In this document: piece by piece, positions 2,066 to 32,720 of the stretch
Position numbering within the stretch: position 1 is the first letter of the stretch
Layout of the letters: every line of letters begins with the position of its first letter
Source of the DNA: Nemertoderma westbladi
Lineage: Eukaryota > Animalia > Xenacoelomorpha
Direction of reading: 5' to 3'
NCBI GenBank assembly: GCA_032718475.1
Contig: JAUCBJ010003754.1
Span: 1 to 33,114, forward strand
DNA length: 33,114 bases
Notes under the pieces: generated by a model
The model's input: the letters and a program-made list of their open reading frames with translations, nothing else
Database searches by the model: none
What the model was told of the DNA's origin: nothing
Made by a program: the position numbers and the translations under genes

Positions 2066-3733
2066 GCAAAGACGAATCGCATCCCAGGGGGCGCTGCCCG
2101 GGCCCACGTTGTTGGTGAACTCGACCGGTACGGAGATCGTGGGTGGAATGTGTTCGGGTGGGCGAAGTCGGCCACTAACGTGGAAGGGATGGTGATGGCT
2201 GCCCGTGTACATATTATCAGAATAGTGCCAACCGATCGGGAGCTCGTGTTCAGAAAATATGTCGACCAGGACGCTCCTCACCACGTCGCCCCGGGTCAGG
2301 GTGCTCCACTCAACGTCGCCCAGGGTCAGGGTGCTCCTCACCACGTCGCCCAGGGTCAGGGTGCTCCTCTCAACGTCGCTCAGTGTCAGGGTGCTCCACT
2401 CAACGTCGCTCAGTGTCAGGGTGCTCCACTCAACGTCGCTCAGGGTCTGGGTGCTCCTCTCAACGTCGCTCAGTGTCAGGGTGCTCCACTCAACGTCGCT
2501 CAGGGTCAGGGTGCTCCCCACCACGTCGCCCCAGGTCAGGGTGCTCCACTCAACGTCGCTCAGGGTCAGGGTGCTCCACTCAACGTCGCTCAGTGTCAGG
2601 GTGCTCCACTCAACGTCGCTCAGGGTCTGGGTGCTCCCCACCACGTCGCTCAGGGTCAGGGTGCTCCACTCAACGTCGCTCAGTGTCAGGGTGCTCCACT
2701 CAACGTCGCTCAGTGTCAGGGTGCTCCACTCAACGTCGCTCAGGGTCTGGGTGCTCCCCACCACGTCGCTCAGGGTCAGGGTGCTCCACTCAACGTCGCT
2801 CAGTGTCAGGGTGCTCCACTCAACGTCGCTCAGGGTCTGGGTGCTCCCCACCACGTCGCCCAGAATCATGGTGCTCCACTCAACGTCGCTCAGTGTCAGG
2901 GTGCTCCACTCAACGTCGCCCAGGGTCAGGGTGCTCATCACCACGTCGCCCAGGGTCAGGGTGCTCCTCTCAACGTCGCTCAGTGTCAGGGTGCTCCACT
3001 CAACGTCGCTCAGTGTCAGGGTGCTCCACTCAACGTCGCTCAGGGTCTGGGTGCTCCTCTCAACGTCGCTCAGTGTCAGGGTGCTCCACTCAACGTCGCC
3101 CAGAGTCAGGGTGCTCCACTCAACGTCGCTCAGTGTCAGGGTGCTCCACTCAACGTCGCTCAGGGTCTGGGTGCTCCCCACCACGTCGCCCAGAGTCATG
3201 GTGCTCCACTCAACGTCGCTCAGTGTCAGGGTGCTCCACTCAACGTCGCTCAGGGTCTGGGTGCTCCTCACCACGTCGCTCAGGGTCTGGGTGCTCCCCA
3301 CCACGTCGCTCAGGGTCAGGGTGCTCCACTCAACGTCGCTCAGGGTCAGGGTGCTCCACTCAACGTCGCCCAGGGTCAGGGTGCTCCACTCAACGTCGCT
3401 CAGTGTCAGGGTGCTCCACTCAACATCGCTCAGGGTCAGGGTGCTCCCCACCACGTCGCCCAGAGTCAGGGTGCTCCACTCAACGTCACTCAGTGTCAGG
3501 GTGCTCCATTCAACGTCGCTCAGGGTCATGGTGCTCCCCACCACGTCGCCCAGAGTCAGGGTGCTCCACTCAACGTCGCCCAGGGTCAGGGTGCTCCACT
3601 CAACGTCGCTCAGGGTCAGGGTGCTCCCCACCACGTCGCCCCGGGTCAGGGTGCTCCACTCAACGTCACCCAGGGTCAGGGTGCTCCACTCAACGTCGCT
3701 CAGGATAAGGGTGCTCCACTCAACGTCGCCTAG
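2066..3733 (+). CDS. Exon 4 of the Cys-rich gene: unique AKTNRIPGGAARAH...GWNVFGWAK...HIIRIVPT followed by (GAPLNVAQGQ)n repeats. First stop at 3731-3733; without the repeat-borne TAGs the frame would end at 4781-4783
   Basis: TGTAG acceptor at 2064-2065 joins exon 3 in phase 0 and matches the frame of ORF 2150..3733. The unique part resembles the paralog exon at 10305-10545. Confidence 0.6.
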   Translation, partial: AKTNRIPGGAARAHVVGELDRYGDRGWNVFGWAKSATNVEGMVMAARVHIIRIVPTDRELVFRKYVDQDAPHHVAPGQGAPLNVAQGQGAPHHVAQGQGAPLNVAQCQGAPLNVAQCQGAPLNVAQGLGAPLNVAQCQGAPLNVAQGQGAPHHVAPGQGAPLNVAQGQGAPLNVAQCQGAPLNVAQGLGAPHHVAQGQGAPLNVAQCQGAPLNVAQCQGAPLNVAQGLGAPHHVAQGQGAPLNVAQCQGAPLNVAQGLGAPHHVAQNHGAPLNVAQCQGAPLNVAQGQGAHHHVAQGQGAPLNVAQCQGAPLNVAQCQGAPLNVAQGLGAPLNVAQCQGAPLNVAQSQGAPLNVAQCQGAPLNVAQGLGAPHHVAQSHGAPLNVAQCQGAPLNVAQGLGAPHHVAQGLGAPHHVAQGQGAPLNVAQGQGAPLNVAQGQGAPLNVAQCQGAPLNIAQGQGAPHHVAQSQGAPLNVTQCQGAPFNVAQGHGAPHHVAQSQGAPLNVAQGQGAPLNVAQGQGAPHHVAPGQGAPLNVTQGQGAPLNVAQDKGAPLNVA

Positions 3734-4700
3734 GGTCAGGGTGCTTCCCACCACGTCGCCCCGGGTCAGGGTGCTCCACTCAACGTCACCCAGGGTCAGG
3801 GTGCTCCACTCAACGTCGCTCAGGATCAGGGTGCTCCACTCAACGTCGCCTAGGGTCAGGGTGCTCCCCACCACGTCGCCCCGGGTCAGGGTGCTCCACT
3901 CAACGTCGCTCAGGGTCAGGGTGCTCCCCACCACGTCGCCCAGGGTCAGGGTGCTCCACTCAACGTCGCCTAGGGTCAGGGTGCTCCCCACCACGTCGCC
4001 CAGGGTCAGGGTGCTCCACTCAACGTCGCTCAGGGTCTGGGTGCTCCCCACCACGTCGCTCAGGGTCAGGGTGCTCCACTCAACACCGCTCAGGGTCAGG
4101 GTGCTCCACTCAACGTCGCTCAGGGTCAGGGTGCTCCACTCAACGTCGCTCAGGGTCACGGTGCTCCACTCAACGTCGCTCAGGGTCAGGGTGCTCCCCA
4201 CCACGTCGCTCCGGGTCAGGGTGCTCCCCACCACGTCGCCCCGGGTCAGGGTGCTCCACTCAACGTCGCTCAGGGTCAGGGTGCTCCCCACCACGTCGCC
4301 CCGGGTCAGGGTGTTCCACTCAACGTCGCTCAGGGTCAGGGTGCTCCACTCAACGTCGCTCAGGGTCAGGGTGCTCCCCACCACGTCGCCCCGGGTCAGG
4401 GTGTTCCACTCAACGTCGCTCAGGGTCAGGGTGCTCCACTCAACGTCGCTCAGGGTCAGGGTGCTCCCCACCACGTCGCCCCAGGTCAGGGTGCTCCACT
4501 CAACGTCGCTCAGGGTCAGGGTGCTCCACTCAACGTCGCTCAGGGTCAGGGTGCTCCACTCAACGTCGCCCAGGGTTAGGGTGCTCCATTCAACGTCGCT
4601 CAGAGTCAGGGTGCTCCACTCAACGTCGCCCACGGTTAGGGTGCTCCACTCAACGTCGCCCAGTGTCAGGGTGCTCCACTCAACGTCGCTCTGGGTCAGG
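2271..4700 (+). repeat. 30-bp GC-rich minisatellite, 81 units (consensus GTGCTCCACTCAACGTCGCTCAGGGTCAGG)
   Basis: The period-30 register is held with no indels across the whole span; variants are substitutions only. Confidence 0.98.
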
Positions 4701-5269
4701 GTGCACACCGCAAGATCGCCCAGGGCGCTCCCCAAAATGCAGCCCGCGCCCGCAATGTTCCCCGTGAGGGTCCCACGCATTGACCGCGTGACGCATTCAG
4801 ATCGCCGCTATCGACATTGAGTACTGTATATATACATAATTATTACCGGTAGTATTGTTTAATATGGATTATATAATGAATATATAATAATTATTACTGA
4901 CCCGTTTTCAATTAAAATCTAGTTTATCATCAAAGTATGTAGGGAGGGGGGGGGGGGTGGGGGGTGGGATATCTTCACTCATAATATGACGTACAACATT
5001 GTCAGTCTTCAAACAACACCAGTTTGTTTTCGTTTGTTGTGGAGGTAATCCTTGTTAGAGCGTTGTTTCAACATGAATTATGTGACCGAGTTAAGAGACA
5101 CATATCCAGCACAATCATATTCATATAGCATCTGCAATGCAATAGAATACATGAAAAGTCAAATAACAACTCCTACTCCAATACTGGTCCAGTATAAAAC
5201 AGTCAGTGTATAACATCAGGCAAAAAACCTCAATTATTGTGATATCAGTTTTGAGTTAAATCTGATTCC

Positions 5270-6715
5270 ATGAGTCGTGATCGTTATATATCGATTCTCC
5301 GGTTTATTCCATTTTCGAACCCAAACAATGTAGATCCTGAGGACAGGGAAACAAGAATCCACGGTATTACAGAATTAGTAAGTGATATCTGTAAACAGTA
5401 TACACCAGGTCGAAATTTATCCCTTGATGGAGCATTACTACTTTTCAAAGGTCGGCTCGGATTCGAAGTATTTATTCGCACGAAACGTTCCCGCTTTGGG
5501 ATCAAACTATTTATTCTTTGTGACTCTAATGGGTATTTGGTTGTTGCAAGGGTGTATTTTGGGAAGAATGCCACAATACCCCAGATATTGGCAACACCAC
5601 TGAGCCTTCACATAGCGAGAACATAGTCGCTTTGTTACTTGATAAATCCGATTTATTGAAGAAAGGATACATTGTCCACATAGATAACTGGTATACTAGC
5701 ACTCGCCTGGCGACGTTTTTTGACAATACAACTGGTGTGAGAGGAACGATTAATGTAACTAGAGGAATTCCAGACGAATTAAAACACCTCAAACAGAAGG
5801 GTACTAGTTCGAAGTTTATGCGAAATGAAAGTAAAACAATCTTAGCTGTCAAATTTACTGATAAATGAGATGTATATTTGTTGTCAACTGTGGAAGATGC
5901 CAAAGAGGTTGAGAAGAACCGATTTGTACCACCATGGACAAATCGGTTCTTCTCAACCTCTTTGGCATCTTCCACAGTTGACAACAAATATACATCTCAT
6001 TTATCAGTAAATTTGACAGCTAAGATTGTTTTACTTTCATTTCGCATAAACTTCGAACTAGTACCCTTCTGTTTGAGGTGTTTTAATTCGTCTGGAATTC
6101 CTCTAGTTACATTAATCGTTCCTCTCACACCAGTTGTATTGTCAAAAAACGTCGCCAGGCGAGTGCTAGTATACCAGTTATCTATGTGGACAATTTTTGC
6201 ATTTTGTAAACCAACCCCGATTGACATGTATAACAAATTCATGGGAGGCGTTGACTTGCAGGACCAACTTATAAAAATGTACAATCCTGTACGGAAGAGC
6301 CATTCGTGGTATAAAAAGATTGGATTTAATCTGGTTATGCGTTTGGTTATAAATGCTTATGTCATTCATAAGCGCGAGAAGAATAAGAAGGCAAATCTCC
6401 TAACTTTCCTAACAAACGCAATTATTTGGCTGACTCAAATGAAATGTGATAACCCCCGTAAGTGGCAACGTGGCTTCTACTGTACGAAAGTGACAGTTGT
6501 GATTTTGTAGTTCCAGGCCCAGGGGCCTTTGTCCACCACTCCCTCACACTAATTCCACCAACACCGAAGGTTCGCAAACCAAGAAACCGTTGCTGATTGT
6601 GTTACTCTGATGGGTGCAAAGAAAAACTGTCACGATATTATTGCCCGCAATGCCCCTCTAAGCCATCTCTATGTCTGTATTGTGAGACTCCGTGGCACAA
6701 GAACATAAAACAATA
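5270..6715 (+). pseudogene. piggyBac (PGBD-type) transposase relic, 5'-truncated, with stops and frameshifts
   Basis: Motifs MSRDRY.SILRF, SLDGALLLFKGR..F..FI..K..RFGIK, IDNWYTS and YNKFMGGVDLQDQ. The C-terminal cysteine-rich domain (C*LC...SRYYCPQCPSKPSLC..C..PWH) lies at ~6590-6705. Confidence 0.9.
5671..6194. repeat. Long palindrome with arms 5671-5927 and 5938-6194 (257 bp each) and a 10-nt spacer ACCACCATGG
   Basis: The arms are reverse complements of each other. The ORF track shows identical peptides on opposite strands (5632..5868+ vs 5997..6284-). Confidence 0.95.
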
Positions 6716-10304: not shown

Positions 10305-10545
10305 CTATAATCTAAATAAGTTAATTATAAATTGCATTTGCATACCTGCCCACTGCCTGAAACCAAACTGTTGTGTTGGAGACACACTCGTTATATGCAA
10401 CTTCGGTGGCTCAAAGACCCATTTCATCCACCGTCGAAGTCGACGACTTGGACCAGCCACAGATATCCCAACCTCCCCCGTAGCGAGCGACCTCCGCTTG
10501 AACATGAGCACGAAGCTCCTCATTGCTAATCCTCTGATCAATACA
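10305..10545 (-). pseudogene. Downstream exon of a diverged paralog of the Cys-rich gene (equivalent to exon 4)
   Basis: IRGLAMRSFV...ISVAGPSR...PKLHITSVSPT aligns by eye with IPGGAARAHV...WNVFGWAK...ARVHIIRIVPT. The nearest AG acceptor is one base out of phase. Confidence 0.45.
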
Positions 10546-10639
10546 CTATATTGGAAGGAAGTTTAATAATATAATTATACGAAGTTCTACTATTTAATAT
10601 TGTTACTATTACTACTATAAGTAAGCATCCAACTCATCT

Positions 10640-11183
10640 TAGAAGGACATAGAAGTTAGGAAAGTAAAGGCTTGGGTAGCTCTATCAAAAATGGATACCA
10701 TCTGGAAATCAGATCTCTCCAGGCACCTGAAGACTAAGTTCTTTCGAGCCACAGTGGAAAGTGTATTTTTATACGGGGGTGAGACCTGGACAGGACACTG
10801 ACTAAATCACTTGAACAACGAATTGATGGTTGCTACACAAGACTACTAAGGGCAGCCCTAAACATCAGCTGGAGACAACACATGACAAACGCCGAACTTT
10901 ATGGTACAATACCACCTGTATCAACCACCCTCCGTGAACGCAGATTAAGATTCAGTGGCCACTGCTGGCGAAGTAAAGACGAGGTCATACCAGATCTACT
11001 TCTCTGGCAACAAACTCATGGAAAGCGTAGTCGTGGGCGACTGGCCATAACATATATAGATCAACTTAAAAGGGATACTGAACTTGGGAGAAACGAAATT
11101 GCGACAACTATGGAGAATCGGGAAGCCTGGAAGGATCTCATTTCCACTGTCCGAGTTCGCTCGACCTAGTAGTAGTAGTAGTA
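10640..11183 (+). mobile_element. RTE-clade LINE 3' fragment with a (TAG)n tail
   Basis: IWKSDLSRHLKTKFFRATVESVFLYGGETWT and RERRLRFSGHCWR...GKRSRGR..TYIDQL are typical of RTE ORF C-termini. The stop at 11167-11169 runs into a TAG microsatellite tail. Confidence 0.88.
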
Positions 11184-20015: not shown

Positions 20016-20791
20016 TGGGAAGGTGGGTTTAGATACATGCAGTAATGTATATGGGTGGAGAGTGGGTTTATAGATAATGCAGTAATGTACAGTATATAGG
20101 TGGAGGGTGGGTTTAGATACATGCTGTAATGTATATGGGTGGAGGGTGGGTTTATAGATAATGCAGTAATGTACAGTATATAGGTGGAGGGTGGGTTTAG
20201 ATACATGGTGTAATGTATATGGGTGGAGGGTGGGTTTATAGATAATGCAGTAATGTACAGTATATAGGTGGAGGGTGGGTTTAGATACATGCTGTAATGT
20301 ATATGGGTGGAGGGTGGGTTTATAGATAATGCAGTAATGTACAGTATATAGGTGGAGGGTGGGTTTAGATATATGCTGTAATGTATATGGGTTGAGGGTG
20401 GGTTTATAGATAATGCAGTAATGTACAGTATATAGGTGGAGGGTGGGTTTAGATACATGCTGTAATGTATATGGGTGGAAGGTGGGTTTATAGATAATGC
20501 AGTAATGTACAGTATATAGGTGGAGGGTGGGTTTAGATACATGCTGTAATGTATATGGGTGGAGGGTGGGTTTATAGATAATGCAGTAATGTACAGTATA
20601 TAGGTGGAGGGTGGGTTTAGATATATGCTGTAATATATATGGGTTGAGGGTGGGTTTATAGATAATGCAGTAATGTACAGTATATAGGTGGAGGGTGGGT
20701 TTAGATACATGCTGTAATGTATATGGGTGGAGGGTGGGTTTATAGATAATGCAGTAATGTACAGTATATAGGTGGAGAGTGGGTTTAGATA
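20016..20791 (+). repeat. 84-bp minisatellite (dimer of related subunits), about 9 copies, G-rich on the + strand
   Basis: GGTGGAGGGTGGGTTTA occurs twice per 84-bp unit. ORF 19991..20710 shows a 28-aa periodicity. Confidence 0.95.
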
Positions 20792-21695: not shown

Positions 21696-21951
21696 TCTAT
21701 ACCTATAAAAATCAAATTCTGTCTGTCTATCTCTCTCTGTGTTCGAACTCCTCCAAAACGGGCCGAGGGATTGCGCTGGGACTTGGCATGTGTGTATAAC
21801 TTTAACCAGCGGTCGTTATAGGCCACTTTTCGAAAAGTTTAATTCACGTTCGGTACCGGTACCGGTAGGCCTATACTGGTGCCGCTACGCCAGTAGGCCT
21901 ATACCGGTAGCGGGAAATACCAGGTAACCCGCCTCAGGTATTGCCTGCTAG
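21696..21951 (+). mobile_element. Short non-autonomous Helitron (~256 bp)
   Basis: 5' A|TCTATAC, an internal TCTG microsatellite, a subterminal GC-rich hairpin (GCGGG...CCCGC), 3' CTAG|T and no TSD. Confidence 0.7.
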
Positions 21952-22061
21952 TAAATTTATAAATATATCTCCAATAAACAACCCCATGGGCAAAACTGGT
22001 TCTCGAAGAGTTGCCAAGACTAAATTGAGAACGCTGCTATCGCGGGTGTGGAATGGGTCTT
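21862..22061 (+). repeat. 200-bp direct repeat, copy 1 (Helitron 3' end plus ~110 bp of flank)
   Basis: Near-identical to 23143-23342 (offset 1281). Confidence 0.93.
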
Positions 22062-22894: not shown

Positions 22895-23105
22895 TTTCGG
22901 CGGAATTTGGCAAATTTTGGTGCTAGCACCAAATTGCGTACCCATCACCAACAAGTACAAGTTTGCGATGTCCAGTGCTCTTTTTATTGATTCCATCGGA
23001 TTCAGGACCCTCATAAACCCGTATAACGCAATAAACAATATGATACTATCAACTGATCAATTTGCTTATTTTCCAAAATTTGGTGCTGGCACAACAATTT
23101 TCACC
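22895..23105 (+). repeat. Dispersed repeat (MITE-like) related in inverted orientation to 32563-32720
   Basis: Shares the palindrome TTTGGTGCTAGCACCAAA, AAAATTTGGTGCTGGCACAACAATTTT and CATCGGATTCAGG. Confidence 0.7.
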
Positions 23106-23142: not shown

Positions 23143-23342
23143 CCGGTAGGCCTATACTGGTGCCGCTACGCCAGTAGGCCTATACCGGTAGCGGGAAATA
23201 CCAGGTAACCCGCCTCAGGTATTGCCTGCTAGTAAATTTATAAATTTATCTCCAATAAACAACCCCACGGGCAAAACTGGTTCTCGAAGAGTTGCCAAGA
23301 CTAAATTGAGAACGCTGCTATCGCGGGTGTGGAATGGGTCTT
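23143..23342 (+). repeat. 200-bp direct repeat, copy 2
   Basis: Near-identical to 21862-22061. Confidence 0.93.
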
Positions 23343-25240: not shown

Positions 25241-25826
25241 TAATAAGTGGGCATTCAATCCACTACGCAAGTACAGTGAGAAATACAAGGCATGGTATGC
25301 TAGCCACCAGCGAGAATGTACTGAGCACCATATTGGCTCAAATGGTATTATGGAATCTGCACTCGCCATAGACCTTTTCCAACGGTCGAAAGATGGGCTG
25401 ATGTCAGATAACCATGGTGTTCGCTATGCGGATATGGTCTGTGATGGTGACAGCTCATCTTACAAGTCTATATGGGATATATATGGTGCTTGTAACCAAT
25501 GCCAGAGTTATGAACAAATGCCTTGTGCCTTAGTTAGAGAAAGTAGAATTCAATGCTTCTATCATTGGTAAAAAATAAATTGGACTGAACAAACCCATTA
25601 TATTACACCTTTAATTACAGTTGCAACAGCTCATCTCCAATTTATTTAATTAATATCACCTGGCAGCAATACTCGAGCTGAATATTTATTTATTTGTACT
25701 TCCCTCCTGTTTCACTCTAGCATACTTGATGCCGTTAGGTCCGCTGTTAGAGATAGAATATATGCAACTTAAGACTGCCCGTTCAATAGAAGTGGATTAG
25801 GTGGGACTGTGAGTGTCAGGGGCTAG

Positions 25827-25919
25827 TGGCTGAGCTGGTTAGCGCTACTGATGAGGCCTGTTAGGCCGAAACGTACGTATAGCGCTGGTTCAACCCCCGG
25901 TGACGCGCTCTCATTTTTT
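25827..25919 (+). promoter_or_regulatory. Pol III type-2 promoter (A box 25827-25838, B box 25887-25897) and T6 terminator (25914-25919) around the hammerhead; repeated in each unit
   Basis: TGGCTGAGCTGG fits the A-box consensus, GGTTCAACCCC fits the B-box consensus, and TTTTTT follows downstream. Confidence 0.7.
25841..25886 (+). ncRNA. Type I hammerhead ribozyme, copy 1 (predicted cleavage after GUA at 25879)
   Basis: Stem I AGCGCTA/TAGCGCT, core CTGATGA, stem II GGCCT-GTT-AGGCC, GAAA, and a minimal stem III with palindromic ACGTACGT. Confidence 0.93.
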
Positions 25920-26181
25920 CCACTTCTGAACAAACCCATTATATTACACCTTTAATTACAGTTGCAACAGCTCATCTCCAATTTATTTAATTAATATCAC
26001 CTGGCAGCAATACTCGAGCTGAATATTTATTTATTTGTACTTCCCTCCTGTTTCACTCTAGCATACTTGATGCCGTTAGGTCCGCTGTTAGAGATAGAAT
26101 ATATGCAACTTAAGACTGCCCGTTCAATAGAAGTGGATTAGGTGGGACTGTGAGTGTCAGGGGCTAGTGGCTGAGCTGGTT

Positions 26182-26227
26182 AGCGCTACTGATGAGGCCT
26201 GTTAGGCCGAAACGTACGTATAGCACT
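26182..26227 (+). ncRNA. Type I hammerhead ribozyme, copy 2 (one stem I mismatch, TAGCACT)
   Basis: Same core and stems as copy 1. Confidence 0.9.
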
Positions 26228-26522
26228 GGTTCAACCCCCGGTGACGCGCTCTCATTTTTTCCACTTCTGAACAAACCCATTATATTACACCTTTAATTAC
26301 AGTTGCAACAGCTAATCTCCAATTTATTTAATTAATATCACCTGGCAGCAATACTCGAGCTGAATATTTATTTATTTGTACTTCCCTTCTGTTTCACTCT
26401 AGCATACTTGATGCCGTTAGGTCCGCTGTTAGAGATAGAATATATGCAACTTAAGACTGCCCGTTCAATAGAAGTGGATTAGGTGGGACTGTGAGTGTCA
26501 GGGGCTAGTGGCTGAGCTGGTT

Positions 26523-26568
26523 AGCGCTACTGATGAGGCCTGTTAGGCCGAAACGTACGTATAGCGCT
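26523..26568 (+). ncRNA. Type I hammerhead ribozyme, copy 3 (the adjacent B box reads GTTTCAA)
   Basis: Same core and stems as copy 1. Confidence 0.92.
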
Positions 26569-27135
26569 GTTTCAACCCCCGGTGACGCGCTCTCATTTTT
26601 TCCACTTCTGAACAAACCCATTATATTACACCATTGGTAAAAAACACTGGCATGGTCATGAAAGTGTGGATGAGAGTGAAGTACCTGAAAAAAAAATAGA
26701 TTGCCTAAGAGTCAACCACATTTCCTGTGTCAACCATGTACAAAAGCAGATGGGTACAGCTCTTAGGAAGTTTGTTAGTGACACTAAGGGATGACTATGT
26801 GATGGCAAATTTGTAGGTGGTAGGACAGGTAGGCTTACATCAGCTGATCAGGAAGCAATCACCTAAAATGACTGATGCCCAAAATCTTCATGCAATGAAG
26901 CGCAACATCATTGCTTCACTCCGACATTGTATAAAGTCTGGAATTGTCATCGATCGACACAAATTTTGCCCTGAAGGTGACTTATCTTGGTGTGCATACA
27001 AGCGCACTGGTATAGCAGGCCCAGATAAAAGCCATCATCTAGATGCCGTGTTCCTGCCTCTGCTACTGCCCATTTATCGACGATTGTCCCACTCAAATAT
27101 TATTGAAGCGATGTTTGGGAGCATTTACCCAGAAC

Positions 27136-27195
27136 CATCGGAAACTTAAGGTCCGATTATTTAGAGCAGCAGTAGTTCCAGTACTCCTCTACGCA
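27136..27195 (+). mobile_element. Short RTE-LINE fragment on the + strand
   Basis: RKLKVRLFRAAVVPVLLYA resembles RHLKTKFFRATVESVFLYG of the RTE at ~10725-10780. Confidence 0.6.
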
Positions 27196-27312
27196 CCCTC
27201 TAATGATTCTGAGAGTACTCCTAAGTCATCAGCAAAGTCTAGATCAGTTAGGTACTTGGCAGGATTTCCTCGACTTCTGGAGCCAGTAGGTGGAGTTATC
27301 ATCACCCCATCA
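27190..27312 (-). mobile_element. RTE-type reverse transcriptase fragment containing the catalytic FADD motif (27225-27236)
   Basis: SRSRGNPAKYLTDLDFADDLGVLSES matches the RTE-clade RT active-site region. Confidence 0.8.
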
Positions 27313-29234
27313 AAGGATAGTGTCAAAGGATATTCGACACCATTACATTCCATAATACATCGATTGGTAATGTGGCTCTTAGTAACAATGCTCCCTCCCA
27401 TTGGTATAAAAGCCATAGCCAACGTGCAAAGACATGCTCAAAAGCCACTCCTTCGTTAAATCGACTACTTCGCCTTCGCGTGGCTGACGACCTGGGTTCT
27501 TAACTGAGCTCATGCTTCCACCGCTGTGGTTGCTATCATTAATGTTGAAGCCCTTGCTGTCCTCAGGTTCGAGACCCTCCTCATGTTCATATTCTTCGAG
27601 CTTCAATCCACTAGAACTTATACGCCACCCAGTGGGTTGTGCATTTATTTTGGTATCCGATAGCAAGATCAGATCATGGTGAAAAAGGCTCCCCCAATAT
27701 ACTTGGCTATTCGGGTAGCATATTCATTCCCCAACCTATCTAATCCATATCCCAGAAGGCCCATGCCGAACAATCCCACGCAGAAAAGAATGTCTCTCCT
27801 GGCGTGGTATCCACTACTAGTGCGCCGATTACTCAAAAATTGGAGAAACAAGCTCACTAGACCCACAAAAGCGAAAAGAATTGTGGTGATGAGCCAATCC
27901 CCAACAAAGAGGTAACCCACCACAGTCATCACTATGATCTGATCACGTTTGGATCCAAACTGTCTCTCCAACAATACTATCGGGATTCCGGCCCAAAAAG
28001 GGAGAATTCCGATGACAATGGCCCTGTAAAATATCAGATTATGCGGCCATTCGCTACTGGCATCTCGCTCAGACCAAAAATATTGTTCATACAAACGGTT
28101 GCCCGATCCGATCCGATCCGTAAATGATTGCTGCCATCCAGGTATTGATCGATCCAGTAACTAGCAGTATATAGATACCACACAAAGACAGGTAAAACCG
28201 AGTCGTCCACCTGGCAACATACAATATCACGATATTGAGGATGTCCCGAATACATTTGAGATGTGCTACGCTAATCAAGTACGCATACTGCAGCCAATTG
28301 GTTACAAGATAATACAAGTTCTTGGTCCTCCAAATGAAGATTCTCCATCTTTGGCGGCCACGCCCTAGATAGTGGAGCAATCTAAACCGAATGGAGACCA
28401 CCAAGAGATAATCAAAGCGGGCCCACAGGACACGAAAAAAGTATCGTAAAACACGAATCCTCGACCATACCAAAAAATTAAGAGTACGGTTGTAGAGGGT
28501 CGTATGATACTTCCGACGTTTGATCCTGCGGATGCGGTAAGCGATATCACGGGAAAATATAGAGAAACTTCCCCCAATCCCCGTCATCCCAATCAAGTGA
28601 CGCTTAGTCAAAACACGTTTTGTGCATTTGACAAAGATCTTTGCATAGAGAAACACATACAAAACCAGAACACGTCCCCCCCACATCCAATGCACGTGGA
28701 GGGGTTCAACTATAAAAAATGACAATCCTGATTACCATACAACCGATTCGTGACCAGTGAGATTTTCAAAATGATCATCTCTTCCCCCGAGGTCTGCTTG
28801 GCCATCTTCATGGAGGCCCATTTTTCATCAGCCGAGGCTGAAGTAAGCGTGACATCGAGTTTGATGACATACAACAAACTCAATTTCCTATACTTGGCCC
28901 ATTTATCCATACGATCGCGACGTTGCATCTCATCACGGTAATCAGCATCATTCCCCCATGTTTGCTTGGCGCTCTTGGGTATATTTCGACTTGGTAAAGT
29001 CCAATTCCACAGGCAACCGCCTCTCGAACCGATCGGAAGTGCAGTAAAGCCAGTTGAATCCTTGCTATCCAAAGTGTAAACTTTGTACCCAGTGGGCGAA
29101 GTTACATGCTGATCGCCATGGTAAGTGGTCACGTCTACCCCCATAATGGTGGTGGGTTCCATAGTGGCTGCTAAATTCAAGGACTGTTCAATATCTGATG
29201 CGCTGTACTTGGACCCTACTTGCCTAAACAAAAC
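27313..29234 (-). pseudogene. Endogenous flavivirus-like element, 3' part: NS1-like, multi-membrane NS2A/NS2B-like and NS3-protease N-terminal-like sequence, frameshifted
   Basis: A contiguous intronless chain of minus-strand ORFs (28710, 28087, 28034, 27669, 27379) with hydrophobic segments. It ends in VGYGFYTNG/GSIVTKSHIT, which resembles the NS3 GVG...GVFHTMWHVT catalytic-His motif. The NS1 and NS2 labels rest mainly on gene order. Confidence 0.62.
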
Positions 29235-31271
29235 TGTTACGATATATGGCGCTGTGTACTATTATCAGCCCATTATACGGTATAGATATTTAGATAAGCC
29301 ATAATGACGCGCAATCATATTCAGATAAGGAAATTAAAATGCCCATATTTTGAATTTTATCCATTTTGTACAGTATGCAGTCCTACCTATGTAATTTTGT
29401 AGTAAAATATAAATAGATAGTTCCACGGTAGCGAGTTTCCTGTACAACCCTGGATGTAAGCTTGCTGTTATTAGTATCAATAGGATTAACCGTGTATTTG
29501 TTTTAATTTCCATTGTATTTGCGCTAAATTAGATTTTATGTACTGTGCTTTAATGTGTCGCAAAATTAAGTAACGCAATCATTACCATATATGGTAATAA
29601 TTTGCGATTTCGAAAGCCATTAGGTTCACAATCCGGCTTCCTTATTGGCCTAGCTGCTTCTAGGCTGGTCTAATGGTAGCGCGGATTGGGGAACCAATGA
29701 GAGGATTATTGCATCATCCCTGTTGCATCATCCTTTAGGAATCACCTATAAATTGGCTGTATTTTCTTATTACTATTATTATTACTACTGCTACCGTTGT
29801 TTAATTTTCTTAGTTGCATTATAGTATAATTTCTCGCTTCTGTAATTCCATTCGTTTTCCTGCAATAATTAGCAATTTTTTGTAATTTCTGCTTATTTCT
29901 CGTGTTTCTCACTTTAATCTCGATGATTACTGCAAATTACAATCAGAACTATGATTTCTACCCTTTGATTAATGGTTCTATGTGATTAAGATGCGATAAT
30001 CCCATGGGATTTCTCTAGACTGTCAGACTGTGTGATTGCATGCGCCGTTCCGGTAGCCACTCACTAGATGGAGGGCTAAGGTACCGGGGGGTAGCGACGA
30101 AGGGAGTGCGGAGGATTCAAAGGCGAGCAACGCTGGCGGGGGGTCACCGTTGCGGTCGGAGGGCTAGCAGTGTAGAGGGAAGACTGATCGCTGGTACAGT
30201 AATTAGGGGGCTGATGATCCAGATTTTGTCTCTATTTTGTAGTATTAGGGGGGCAGGAATCGGGTTAGTTAGGAAGCCTACATGTACCCGAGAGAGGCCT
30301 TCGTGCTTTAAATTGTAAATTGTAAATTGTGAGTTGCGAATTACGAATTGTGAATTGCGAACTGCAGACTGAAATTGTACATTTGGGAACTACAAATTGG
30401 TAAGTATCGACTATTGATCATTACTCTGATTGGTGTGTTGCTAGAGTGTGCCTAGTTAGATTATGAATGCTTAGATAGGTGCCCTTTTCCCTTGATTGAT
30501 TTCTATTTCTTAGTTTACGATAAATAATTACTGATTAGGCAAAATTAATACGGTATTTAGGCAGTTACTAGTGTAACCCGTTGCGTAATAAATTAAAATT
30601 GCGCATTCTGGAACACTTAGTAATTAGTACGCTGTTTTATATTTGTGACTGTAATTAATTAGTAAAATTAAGAATTTGTACGCAGCATAGCGGAGAGTAG
30701 TTAAGGTAATAATTTGGAGTACTGTAAACTATTCACGCTGGGCGGTTATTTGAAATTAGCGGACAATAAGCTAGATAGCAGTATCCAAGACGCAGTATAC
30801 AGTAGTAAATTGCTGGCCTAAAGCCAGCCGAAGGCAAGTTTAGACCCATAGTATCAGTCCCCGATAGACATTCTGTCCCATTTTTGAATTATTTAAATAT
30901 TCTCACATTCACCCATTCCGTTAGGGAACCCCAGTATTTGCGATTGGAAAAGGCACGTTTATTTGTGCGTTTTAGCAGTAGGATTAGGCGATAAGAATAC
31001 ACTCTGAGTGTCAAGCCTCTCGTTTTAAGTAGCTTAGGGAGCCGATTCGGGTTTATTGTTTGGTTATTCCCGCGTGGCTCATAGATTCGAACAGTTAACT
31101 CTCTACCGAGCGATCGGTAGAGAAAGGAACAAGCGATTTGCAGGAGCCGTATAAAATTAGTAAAATATATTAGCGGACAGCAGGTTAGCGCCATCCAATG
31201 GTAAGTAGCAGTTTTGTGTATAGCAGTTGTGTAGTAGTAATAGCGCGCTCCTGATCGCCCCTTGCTTAACA
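29235..31271. mobile_element. 2037-bp apparently non-coding insertion with TGTTA...TAACA termini (solo-LTR-like) splitting the viral element
   Basis: TG...CA ends with a short inverted terminal match. Removing it restores an in-frame join (KQTPVLD|VLFRQVG). No TSD was seen. Confidence 0.5.
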
Positions 31272-32560
31272 GTCAAGCACGGGTGTTTGCTTGTTTAACA
31301 AAAACTTCAAAGCATTCAAGCCAACATTAAGATCACGCGTGTCCATGTACACATGTTTGCTATGCCCTGACCAATATCCAATAGGATTAATTCTTATTCC
31401 AAAACGCCAGTTCCATACATAGTCCTTTAGCTGTCCCAAGGCCAGGCTGTAAGTTCCTCTATCAAACTCCAATCCTAAAGCGGTAAACCAGCGTGATTCT
31501 TTCACGAATTTGGACATATTGGGTGCTTCGATGGTGAGAGATCCAGCTTCCAATGCAGTTATTATATCTTTCGCTGCTTGATCTCGCCATTCAAGAGACT
31601 ATGTATTCTTCCCGGTGACAAAGACTTAAAATGCACTGGAAAGCCATTATCAGTGGCCGAACCAAAAGTCAGAGCACTATGCGGATTATTCACTTCAGCA
31701 GAAGTGCCGGTAGTATGCATCCAGGGTGTGTTGATGACATCCTCAAATCGATGTGCACTTTCCACCACCTGGCAATCGTTTCCATTACAGAATACCCATA
31801 AATAAGGCATCATCTCCAAGTGATTGTCACAATGCATCCTAAAAGTTCCTATAGTTGGTAAAGTGCAGTGAGTTTCAGCACTAGTGCCATCAATCTCCAT
31901 TCTGCACACCTTCTTGGTACCTCTAATATTGGCAGTGACATCAACGTGCGCCCTGGCTTTCTCCAAGTTCATCACTTCATACTCCCACACGTATTTGCTC
32001 ACGGCTGCTGAGCCGCTGAGCTTGATACAAGTGCACAAAGGTCCTTCACCAAAGAGTCCACAGCCATTCCCCCACCCTCGGGATACCACTCCATTGTGAC
32101 AAACATCGTGTTCCCTTGGCTTACAATTGGGTGGTGTGCCTCTGGGACACCCCCAAAGAGTGGGACATCACTTGTGATCTTGTGGCCTAGTTGGATAGGG
32201 TAAACCCACGAAAAAGCCCATCCACCATTCATTTCTGCATCATGGCTGGCTATGTAGAAATTTCTCTTAGGATCAGTCACACGCAGAAACTTGCATTCAT
32301 CCCCACGCAGCATCATGTTGATCTGAACATTTTTGCTGCCTTGGATAGTTTCCAAGTTCTCAATCGAAGTACAATGATCATGTAAATAAGTAACATCCAG
32401 GTCGACAGCATCATGTTCAGCTGCATACACTTTCAGAATAGAACCAGTCAACCCGCTGAGTCCAACGAGTATAAACAACATTCCTGGGATAGGACTTTGG
32501 ATGTAACATAAAGTTAAGATTCCAGTCATCAGGAATCCAATACTAAAGATGTTCTCACAT
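31272..32560 (-). pseudogene. Endogenous flavivirus-like element, 5' part: prM-like membrane anchor/signal and envelope (E) class II fusion glycoprotein
   Basis: GCPRG...DVCHNGVVSRGWGNGCGLFGEGPLCTCIKL (fusion loop at 32048-32080) matches flavivirus C....VDRGWGNGCGLFGKG...TCAK. Downstream G...MHC, RFEDVINTPW and NNP..ALTFG parallel E domain II. Frameshifts near 32150 and 31560. Confidence 0.88.
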
Positions 32561-32562
32561 AA

Positions 32563-32720
32563 GTGTTAAAATTGTTGTGCCAGCACCAAATTTTTAAAAA
32601 TAAGCAAATTTATCAACATATATTATCACCTGAATCCGATGAAATCATTTAAAACAGCACTATCTCAAACCTGTACTATTTCATCATGGATACGAAATTT
32701 GGTGCTAGCACCAAATCTTT
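32563..32720 (-). repeat. Dispersed repeat related to 22895-23105, marking the 5' boundary of the viral element
   Basis: AAAATTGTTGTGCCAGCACCAAATTTT, CCTGAATCCGATG and the TTTGGTGCTAGCACCAAA palindrome. Confidence 0.7.

Follow-up and report, generated by a model that had tools for sequence, protein, structure and literature searches.

A probable endogenous flavivirus-like element with a predicted −1 frameshift signal in the genome of Nemertoderma westbladi

The minus strand of contig JAUCBJ010003754.1 from the Nemertoderma westbladi assembly GCA_032718475.1 (positions 1 to 33,114, the 33,114-nucleotide stretch analysed here and called the window) carries two blocks of virus-like DNA on either side of a host long terminal repeat (LTR). 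The blocks span 1,265 and 1,922 bases, 3,187 in total, in agreement with the roughly 3.2 kb of virus-derived DNA claimed in an earlier note on this sequence; that note treated the whole of 27313..32560 as viral, whereas 2,066 of its 5,248 bases are a host solo LTR. Five pieces of the element are collinear with an unnamed 3,101-residue polyprotein (P0002) encoded on a single 9,691-base contig (L001): the M anchor with the start of the envelope protein E, E itself, the two halves of a protein in the NS1 position, and the start of the NS3 protease. We interpret it as a likely endogenous viral element: the M-E-NS1-NS2-NS3 stretch of a flavivirus-like RNA virus, now a decayed copy in DNA. A retrotransposon enzyme of the host probably made this copy, which would have been inherited since, and the virus probably belonged to an undescribed deep branch. 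Its parts are listed in the direction of the element.

32565-31301, minus strand: virus-like block 1
32421..32565, minus strand: end of the M (prM) membrane anchors and putative signalase site before E (hydrophobic segments and P0002 alignment)
32170..32420, minus strand: N-terminal part of E, with a frame break near 32170-32155 (same alignment, P0002 200-321)
31580..32167, minus strand: E domains I/II with fusion loop (Pfam, PDB sequences, P0002, Foldseek)
31560..31580, minus strand: internal deletion junction from E domain II to the NS1-position gene (jump in reference coordinates)
31301..31541, minus strand: NS1-position protein, first half (P0002 793-857)
29234-27313, minus strand: virus-like block 2
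28710..29234, minus strand: NS1-position protein, second half, with a stop right after a slippery heptamer (P0002 931-1009)
28676..28719, minus strand: predicted programmed −1 frameshift signal (heptamer, spacer, hairpin)
28087..28731, minus strand: 214-codon −1 frame, hydrophobic and basic, at the NS2A position (frame length)
27669..28160, minus strand: membrane protein frame at the NS2A/NS2B position (three hydrophobic segments, 28037-27828)
27313..27522, minus strand: NS3 protease start, truncated at 27313 (P0002 alignment)

Each window piece was aligned in a single frame against six references, with 100 shuffled sequences as controls. The five references other than P0002 match the E piece alone and no further window piece. 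By collinearity with P0002, the order is (pr)M-E-NS1-NS2-NS3 in one sense, that of clade I of the Flaviviridae. The downstream order proposed earlier (NS1-like, membrane and NS3-protease-like sequence) stands in outline, with NS1 identified by position and the membrane frame by a weak match; the downstream frames follow P0002 in order, while the 2,066 bases between them are host LTR. Fourteen queries over the window retrieve no flavivirus-like piece beyond the element and no NS5 methyltransferase or polymerase. Among 11 frames scanned with Pfam, 10 yield nothing above the cut-off, the exception being the E frame.

The E region is the most readily recognized part of the element. A nearly canonical fusion loop, SRGWGNGCGLFGEG, lies at 32083-32042 (minus strand) within an open frame (32167-31562) that matches the Pfam family Flavi_glycoprot (PF00869, E 3.1e-12). 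A search of this frame against the sequences of solved structures returns 121 matches at E≤1, headed by flavivirus E chains (E 1.7e-11, residues 90-273), and 32155-31589 aligns to P0002 323-541 with a z-score of 19 (0/100 shuffles). The predicted model of the E fragment (23 alignment rows, pLDDT 57) has three Foldseek matches at E≤0.001 among viral structures, all of them flavivirus E fragments; against the PDB, none falls at or below 0.001 (best E 0.006), and ranks 1-31 among the matches listed are flavivirus E. The low TM-scores to PDB entries follow from the partial nature of the modelled fragment. Together, the Pfam family, the PDB E chains and the three top viral structures identify a class II E protein with a fusion loop, a hallmark of clade I, and bear out both the canonical loop and the class II fold that had been anticipated. 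Upstream of the fusion-loop frame, two hydrophobic segments (32520-32434) correspond to the anchor or signal segments noted before, and the frame 32544-32170 aligns with P0002 200-321, covering the M anchor and the start of E (z 5.9, 0/500 shuffles in a position-restricted test). By eye, we place a signalase cleavage site before E. The N-terminal E frame is joined to the next frame by tblastn with two unnamed E fragments, P0001 and P0003. These fragments may be further members or fossils of the same branch. A Y-x-W motif after the fusion loop is common to the window, P0002, P0001 and P0003 and is absent from the other 12 rows of our E tree. Searching longer proteins with the E fragment as query yielded none of 206 candidates.

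The E gene is internally deleted. Near 31580, the P0002 coordinates leap from 541 to 780-793, and approximately 230 reference residues, from E domain III to the anchors, are missing. Beyond this junction, 31502-31308 matches P0002 793-857 (z 10.2, 0/100 shuffles; tblastn E 3e-5) and, past the LTR, 28976-28740 matches P0002 931-1009 (z 11.5, 0/100 shuffles) with 32% identity in the alignment. The first part of 29234-28950 stays below significance against P0002 in a position-restricted test. An initial assignment of 29234-28710 to E domain III was dropped, as the piece aligns at the NS1 position of P0002.

The protein encoded here sits between E and NS2/NS3, where NS1 would be, and shows no detectable homology to canonical NS1, so that the description "NS1-like" holds for its position. 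The cysteine-rich NS1 family PF00948, a trait of Orthoflavivirus and of crustacean Crangovirus-type viruses, has no Pfam match in the window or in P0002, and a profile of 23 canonical NS1 sequences recovers neither. A profile-profile comparison with canonical NS1 scores 13.1 against a shuffled mean of 14.9 (147/200 shuffles as high), with a positive control at E 9e-29. The NS1-position region of P0002 has 3 cysteines, compared with 13 in the NS1 of the Photeros virus. For the L001 NS1-position protein, the predicted fold (pLDDT 36) is uninformative, with zero Foldseek matches at E≤0.001; a PDB sequence search likewise returned zero matches and the Atlas no usable match. With a two-sequence template, 33 columns aligned to the N-terminus of NS1 at E 0.12, a weak match that was not reproduced. 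On sequence grounds, the element protein is NS1-like by position, and it may be either an extremely diverged NS1 or a replacement for it.

Downstream, the 214-codon frame has no homologue in Pfam, the references or the Atlas. Six-frame comparison of 28060-28760 with nine reference slices placed 3 of 54 tests above z 1.8, none of them convincing; since the minus frame is open throughout, we dropped the idea that this segment is an inverted fragment. The membrane frame (28067-27786) weakly matches P0002 1023-1117, a score reached by 8 of 500 shuffles. At the truncated 3′ end, 27522-27412 matches P0002 1181-1219 with z-scores of 5.8 (0/100 shuffles) and 6.4; taken by itself, the piece that carries the putative histidine of the protease does not reach significance (75/1000 shuffles attain its score). 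In P0002 itself, residues 1211-1324, the region of the protease triad, match the flavivirus protease profile (E 0.004).

The change of frame at the end of the NS1-position gene coincides with a candidate recoding site. A U_UUU_UUA heptamer (28719-28713) lies in the reading frame of the NS1-position protein, with a stop two codons on, and is followed by an 8-base spacer and an 11-pair hairpin (28704-28676). The hairpin has a predicted free energy of −21 kcal/mol (z −2.1; 7/200 shuffles fold as well), and of the 629 stretches of 35 bases in the block, none folds more stably. The two strands of the window contain 264 canonical heptamers, and this one has the strongest fold downstream (next −14.4, median −2.5); for the four others that fall within the virus-like blocks, the best value is −10.7. 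Past the heptamer, the zero frame meets repeated stops while the −1 frame stays open for ~210-214 codons; 0 of 2,000 shuffles give a 214-codon frame. A contig from one of the DNA sequencing runs (X2, 28442-29264) is letter-identical to the window across the site, and the heptamer run is therefore not an assembly slip. A programmed −1 site is defined by an in-frame X_XXY_YYZ heptamer, a 5-9-base spacer, a stable structure and an open −1 frame (PMC12942856), and each of these parts is present here. Among aquatic relatives, −1 frameshifts are reported after NS1 in ostracod flaviviruses (PMC9854234) and, in infectious precocity virus, at the passage from one frame to the other (PMC8269200); frog tamanavirus has a single frame and the lumpfish virus is frameshifted, so the presence of such a site varies (PMC10770923).

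The frame change at 28719-28710 could instead be plain homopolymer decay beside a coincidental hairpin. The other breaks in the element are decay, the heptamer is itself a homopolymer run, and slippage in such runs is common after integration. The hairpin taken alone (z −2.1) is matched by some shuffles, and P0002, which reads through in one frame, has no in-frame canonical heptamer at the end of its NS1-position region and no counterpart of the 214-codon frame; all of this tells against a programmed site. Decay would leave to chance the in-frame heptamer with its nearby stop and 8-base spacer, the top hairpin of 264 sites, the long open −1 frame, the location behind the NS1 gene, shared with other aquatic flaviviruses, and the letter-identical X2 contig. 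We consider decay improbable here, and the change probably a programmed −1 ribosomal frameshift signal of the virus. The frameshifts taken in the earlier note as marks of a fossil are so for the most part, with this break as the probable exception.

The element is embedded in host repeats, three of which adjoin or interrupt it.

29235..31300, no strand assigned: host solo LTR, 2,066 bases (TGTTA...TAACA ends, target duplication)
27137..27312, minus strand, same strand as the element: very high-copy host repeat fused to the element 3′ end (depth, loose contig ends)
32566..32715, no strand assigned: high-copy host repeat at the element 5′ end (depth; related inverted copy at 22916-23104)

The LTR is flanked by a 5-base duplication, AAAAC (29230-29234 and 31301-31305), and none of its six frames matches a Pfam family below E 0.07. 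Summed contig depth over the LTR is ~700-175,000 (runs X1-X3) versus ~8-26 beside it. Depth over the 27137-27312 repeat reaches ~1e5-1e6, with loose contig ends at 27137 and 27312; its translation bears a DLDFADDL motif and has no Pfam match. The frame breaks, the E deletion and the LTR insertion are the kind of decay by which non-retroviral endogenous viral elements are known.

Six sequencing runs are listed, of which three DNA runs from two studies hold the stretch or part of it, and four were compared (X1, X2, X3 and X5); no RNA run among those listed holds it. X1 and X3 derive from one sample, with depths too different between them for copy counting. In X1, X2 and X3, depth over the virus-like blocks is low and ~0-2% of the letters differ; X5 covers only repeats. 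An X2 contig (31152-31622) spans both the E deletion junction and the right end of the LTR with zero differences, X1, from another sample than X2, is exact over 31259-31493 across the same LTR end, and contigs of X1, X2 and X3 alike run 29 letters past the junction at 27312. In one X3 contig, 28046-28269 is missing. After matching 32280-32565, an X1 contig departs from the window for its next 166 letters, which may reflect polymorphism of the repeat at 32566 or a different version that reaches further. The junctions are thus supported at 27312, at the LTR right end and at the deletion, while none of the listed contigs spans the whole stretch. That last point is what could speak for an assembly chimera or contamination with viral RNA. 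DNA contigs from two samples in two studies hold the element joined to host DNA, as an endogenous element requires, contigs cross the three junctions, and an LTR with its target duplication and many frame breaks is impossible from a live virus. We regard a chimera or contaminant as extremely improbable.

A second copy of E, corresponding to 31578-32309, is present in X1, X2 and X3. It differs from the window copy by 12 letters and one short gap in 721 (98% identity) and has other sequence on both sides, the left break falling exactly at the jump in the window copy. The 11 listed shared differences fall 6, 3 and 2 at first, second and third codon positions; with 2 of 11 at third positions, this small sample fits duplication after integration and drift as DNA, and not a replicating virus.

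These observations are consistent with the following history. The RNA of a virus with a class II E bearing a canonical fusion loop, a short protein poor in cysteines at the usual place of NS1 and an obligatory −1 frameshift to reach NS2-NS5 (each a likely trait) would have been reverse-transcribed, likely by a host retrotransposon enzyme, and the DNA copy integrated into the germ line. The element 3′ end abuts the same-strand LINE-like (long interspersed nuclear element) fragment at 27137-27312, which fits a template switch; later insertion of that fragment would also be possible. After integration, the copy would have received the LTR, undergone local duplication and a ~700-base deletion, and gathered scattered frame breaks free of coding constraint.

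The same fossil might serve as a working antiviral memory, as part of a PIWI-interacting RNA (piRNA) cluster that yields small RNAs against a related virus. The element lies in a dense transposon nest, with a second E copy elsewhere; near it are remnants resembling piggyBac (E 1e-16), Mutator (1e-6) and, weakly, Helitron (1e-4) elements, and 6 of 18 frames matched such families. Transposon-rich surroundings are ordinary in a repetitive animal genome, and transposon density alone is no marker of a cluster. The recognizable remnants lie on both strands, with the piggyBac-, Helitron- and Mutator-like ones on plus and the element and the LINE-like piece on minus, and the two E copies show no sign of constraint, which piRNA sources do not need. 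Flavivirus elements of mosquitoes are reported to lie in piRNA clusters. On balance, a piRNA role is unlikely for this locus, and the element is most likely a neutral fossil.

To place the source virus, we turn to its relatives. When the E fragment was searched against 1.84 billion representatives, six matches emerged: the Photeros and Sea-firefly flaviviruses and four unnamed proteins. P0002 carries flavivirus NS3 helicase, methyltransferase and polymerase (NS5) domains. Its locus, L001:140-9442, appears to be a near-complete flavi-like genome; the polyprotein begins hydrophobic, without an obvious basic capsid of normal length, its NS2 region is short and its fusion loop is non-canonical. 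The P0002 polymerase is ~28-33% identical to, and about equally far from, named, jingmen-like and insect-type flavivirus references. NS5 searches, which were word-limited and also missed dengue, return four other long proteins at 24-25% and, among shorter proteins, a gene model of the ostracod Cyprideis torosa (P0011, on a 65-kb contig) at 43%, with three more at 27-28%, one of them named jingmen-type NS5-like. Named viruses in these searches are Wuhan aphid virus 1 (27%) and Tafomo and Palm Creek viruses (25%), with none higher. Residues ~660-1085 of P0011 form a flavivirus NS5 fragment, 53% identical to P0002 over 399 aligned residues, and this fragment probably represents an endogenous element of that branch that has gone unreported. 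A 17-row NS5 tree, built without vertebrate orthoflaviviruses, tamanaviruses, infectious precocity virus or lineages Ie-Ii of PMC11760431, unites P0002 and P0011 (100/99); their branch is long and separate from both the jingmen-like and the insect-type rows. Scans of viral contigs with the window pieces found no relative; lineage scans recovered only L001, 18 insect-type flavivirus contigs (a label based on their fusion loops), a distant polymerase contig and an unrelated helicase locus from a DNA virus. Both the relatives and the repeats suggest an aquatic invertebrate as the host.

Several points weigh against assigning the element to this branch and against the history proposed for it. The E tree (16 rows) does not place the window E, whose grouping with P0002 is neither shown nor rejected (p-AU 0.45). 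The window E scores as high against the Photeros and Sea-firefly viruses as against P0002, and the link to P0002 therefore rests on the NS1-position and NS3 pieces at ~30% identity. The window holds no NS5 for direct placement. The DLDFADDL motif at the 3′ flank, presumably of a LINE reverse transcriptase, was identified by eye, and X2 may be the sample from which the window came.

The source virus might also belong to a described lineage (tamanaviruses, the infectious precocity virus group, Termitovirus, or the tunicate or flatworm lineages), leaving only the fossil as new. No member of these groups is in the reference set, the P0002 polymerase is equally far from jingmen-like and insect-type viruses, as reported for infectious precocity virus, and that virus infects a crustacean and uses a −1 frameshift (PMC8269200). 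The nearest named virus reaches 27% to the P0002 NS5 in the word-limited searches, while the ostracod fragment reaches 43%; P0002 is a single frame of 9.7 kb against 12.6 kb in two frames for infectious precocity virus, and the frog tamanavirus fusion loop in PMC10770923 differs. We consider a described lineage somewhat unlikely. The deep divergence from known flaviviruses seen earlier is supported, and the suggestion of a possibly undescribed lineage gains from the unnamed nearest relative, P0002, within a reference set lacking tamanaviruses, infectious precocity virus and lineages Ie-Ii.

The nearest known systems share some of these traits. Flavivirus-derived elements are rare outside mosquitoes and bees, in 36 of 1,075 species screened (10.1101/2021.09.19.460981). 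Those of Bamford et al. 2022 (PMC9752770: Craspedacusta, Daphnia, Lepidurus, Priapulus X1, and copepod and fish X2) likewise consist of flavivirus-derived fragments in the genomes of invertebrates, frequently with duplications or rearrangements; the present element differs in being nearest to an unnamed polyprotein and in keeping M-E through the start of NS3 with a predicted frameshift signal. The accessible text of PMC9752770 mentions no ostracod, and our element is set apart from that catalogue by description, so that overlap is possible. P0002 resembles the element in its collinear M, E, NS1-position protein and NS3 start, yet shares only ~30% identity and has one open frame, an NS2 region of ~160 residues against ~400 codons and a non-canonical fusion loop. 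The Photeros and Sea-firefly viruses (P0004 and P0005; PMC9854234) have a canonical fusion loop and a predicted −1 frameshift downstream of NS1 as the element does, but a canonical 13-cysteine NS1 without a match to it. Infectious precocity virus (lineage Ij; PMC8269200, PMC11760431), likened here by description only, is a deep clade I virus of a crustacean host with two frames and a predicted −1 frameshift; it differs in its 12.6-kb genome and its heptamer.

Our literature search found no description of this element, although supplementary virus tables, outside that search, may list a relative. Among the matches listed, in their accessible passages, no Cyprideis flavivirus fragment and no frameshift signal in an endogenous flavivirus element is described. 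What appears new is that the NS1-position frame change sits on a U_UUU_UUA heptamer with a strong hairpin and is likely programmed. We tentatively propose, at somewhat less than even confidence, that clade I includes an unnamed branch of genus rank in aquatic invertebrates, marked by the element, P0002 and the ostracod fragment. Its members would combine a fusion protein like that of dengue with a short, cysteine-poor protein that has little or no relationship to NS1. If so, NS1 would be replaceable in non-segmented flaviviruses and the element would be a fossil preserving a functional viral recoding signal. The element would tie an orphan environmental polyprotein to animal germ lines and, with the ostracod fragment, point to an unsampled deep branch of the dengue family. 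Frameshift-dependent replicase expression is suggested for this branch too, and two independent NS1-position sequences beyond current profiles would make the origin of NS1 testable by structure.

Elsewhere in the window, a GC-rich tandem array of 30/60/90-base units occupies 2283-4704 (~2.4 kb), with several frames open on both strands, and the piggyBac-like transposase remnant at 5526-6510 has an internal inverted duplication of part of its coding sequence. On the plus strand, 10400-11169 is the 3′ end of a LINE-like element that terminates in short tandem repeats; it has no Pfam match, and we take its family to be RTE-like. Two near-perfect tandem arrays lie inside other remnants, 84 bases × 9.2 at 20018-20791 in the Helitron-like region and 341 bases × 3.1 at 25585-26632 in the Mutator-like remnant. 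A 200-base direct repeat (21862-22061 and 23143-23342; 99% identical, 1,281 bases apart) is possibly a small recent LTR-type element or a duplication.

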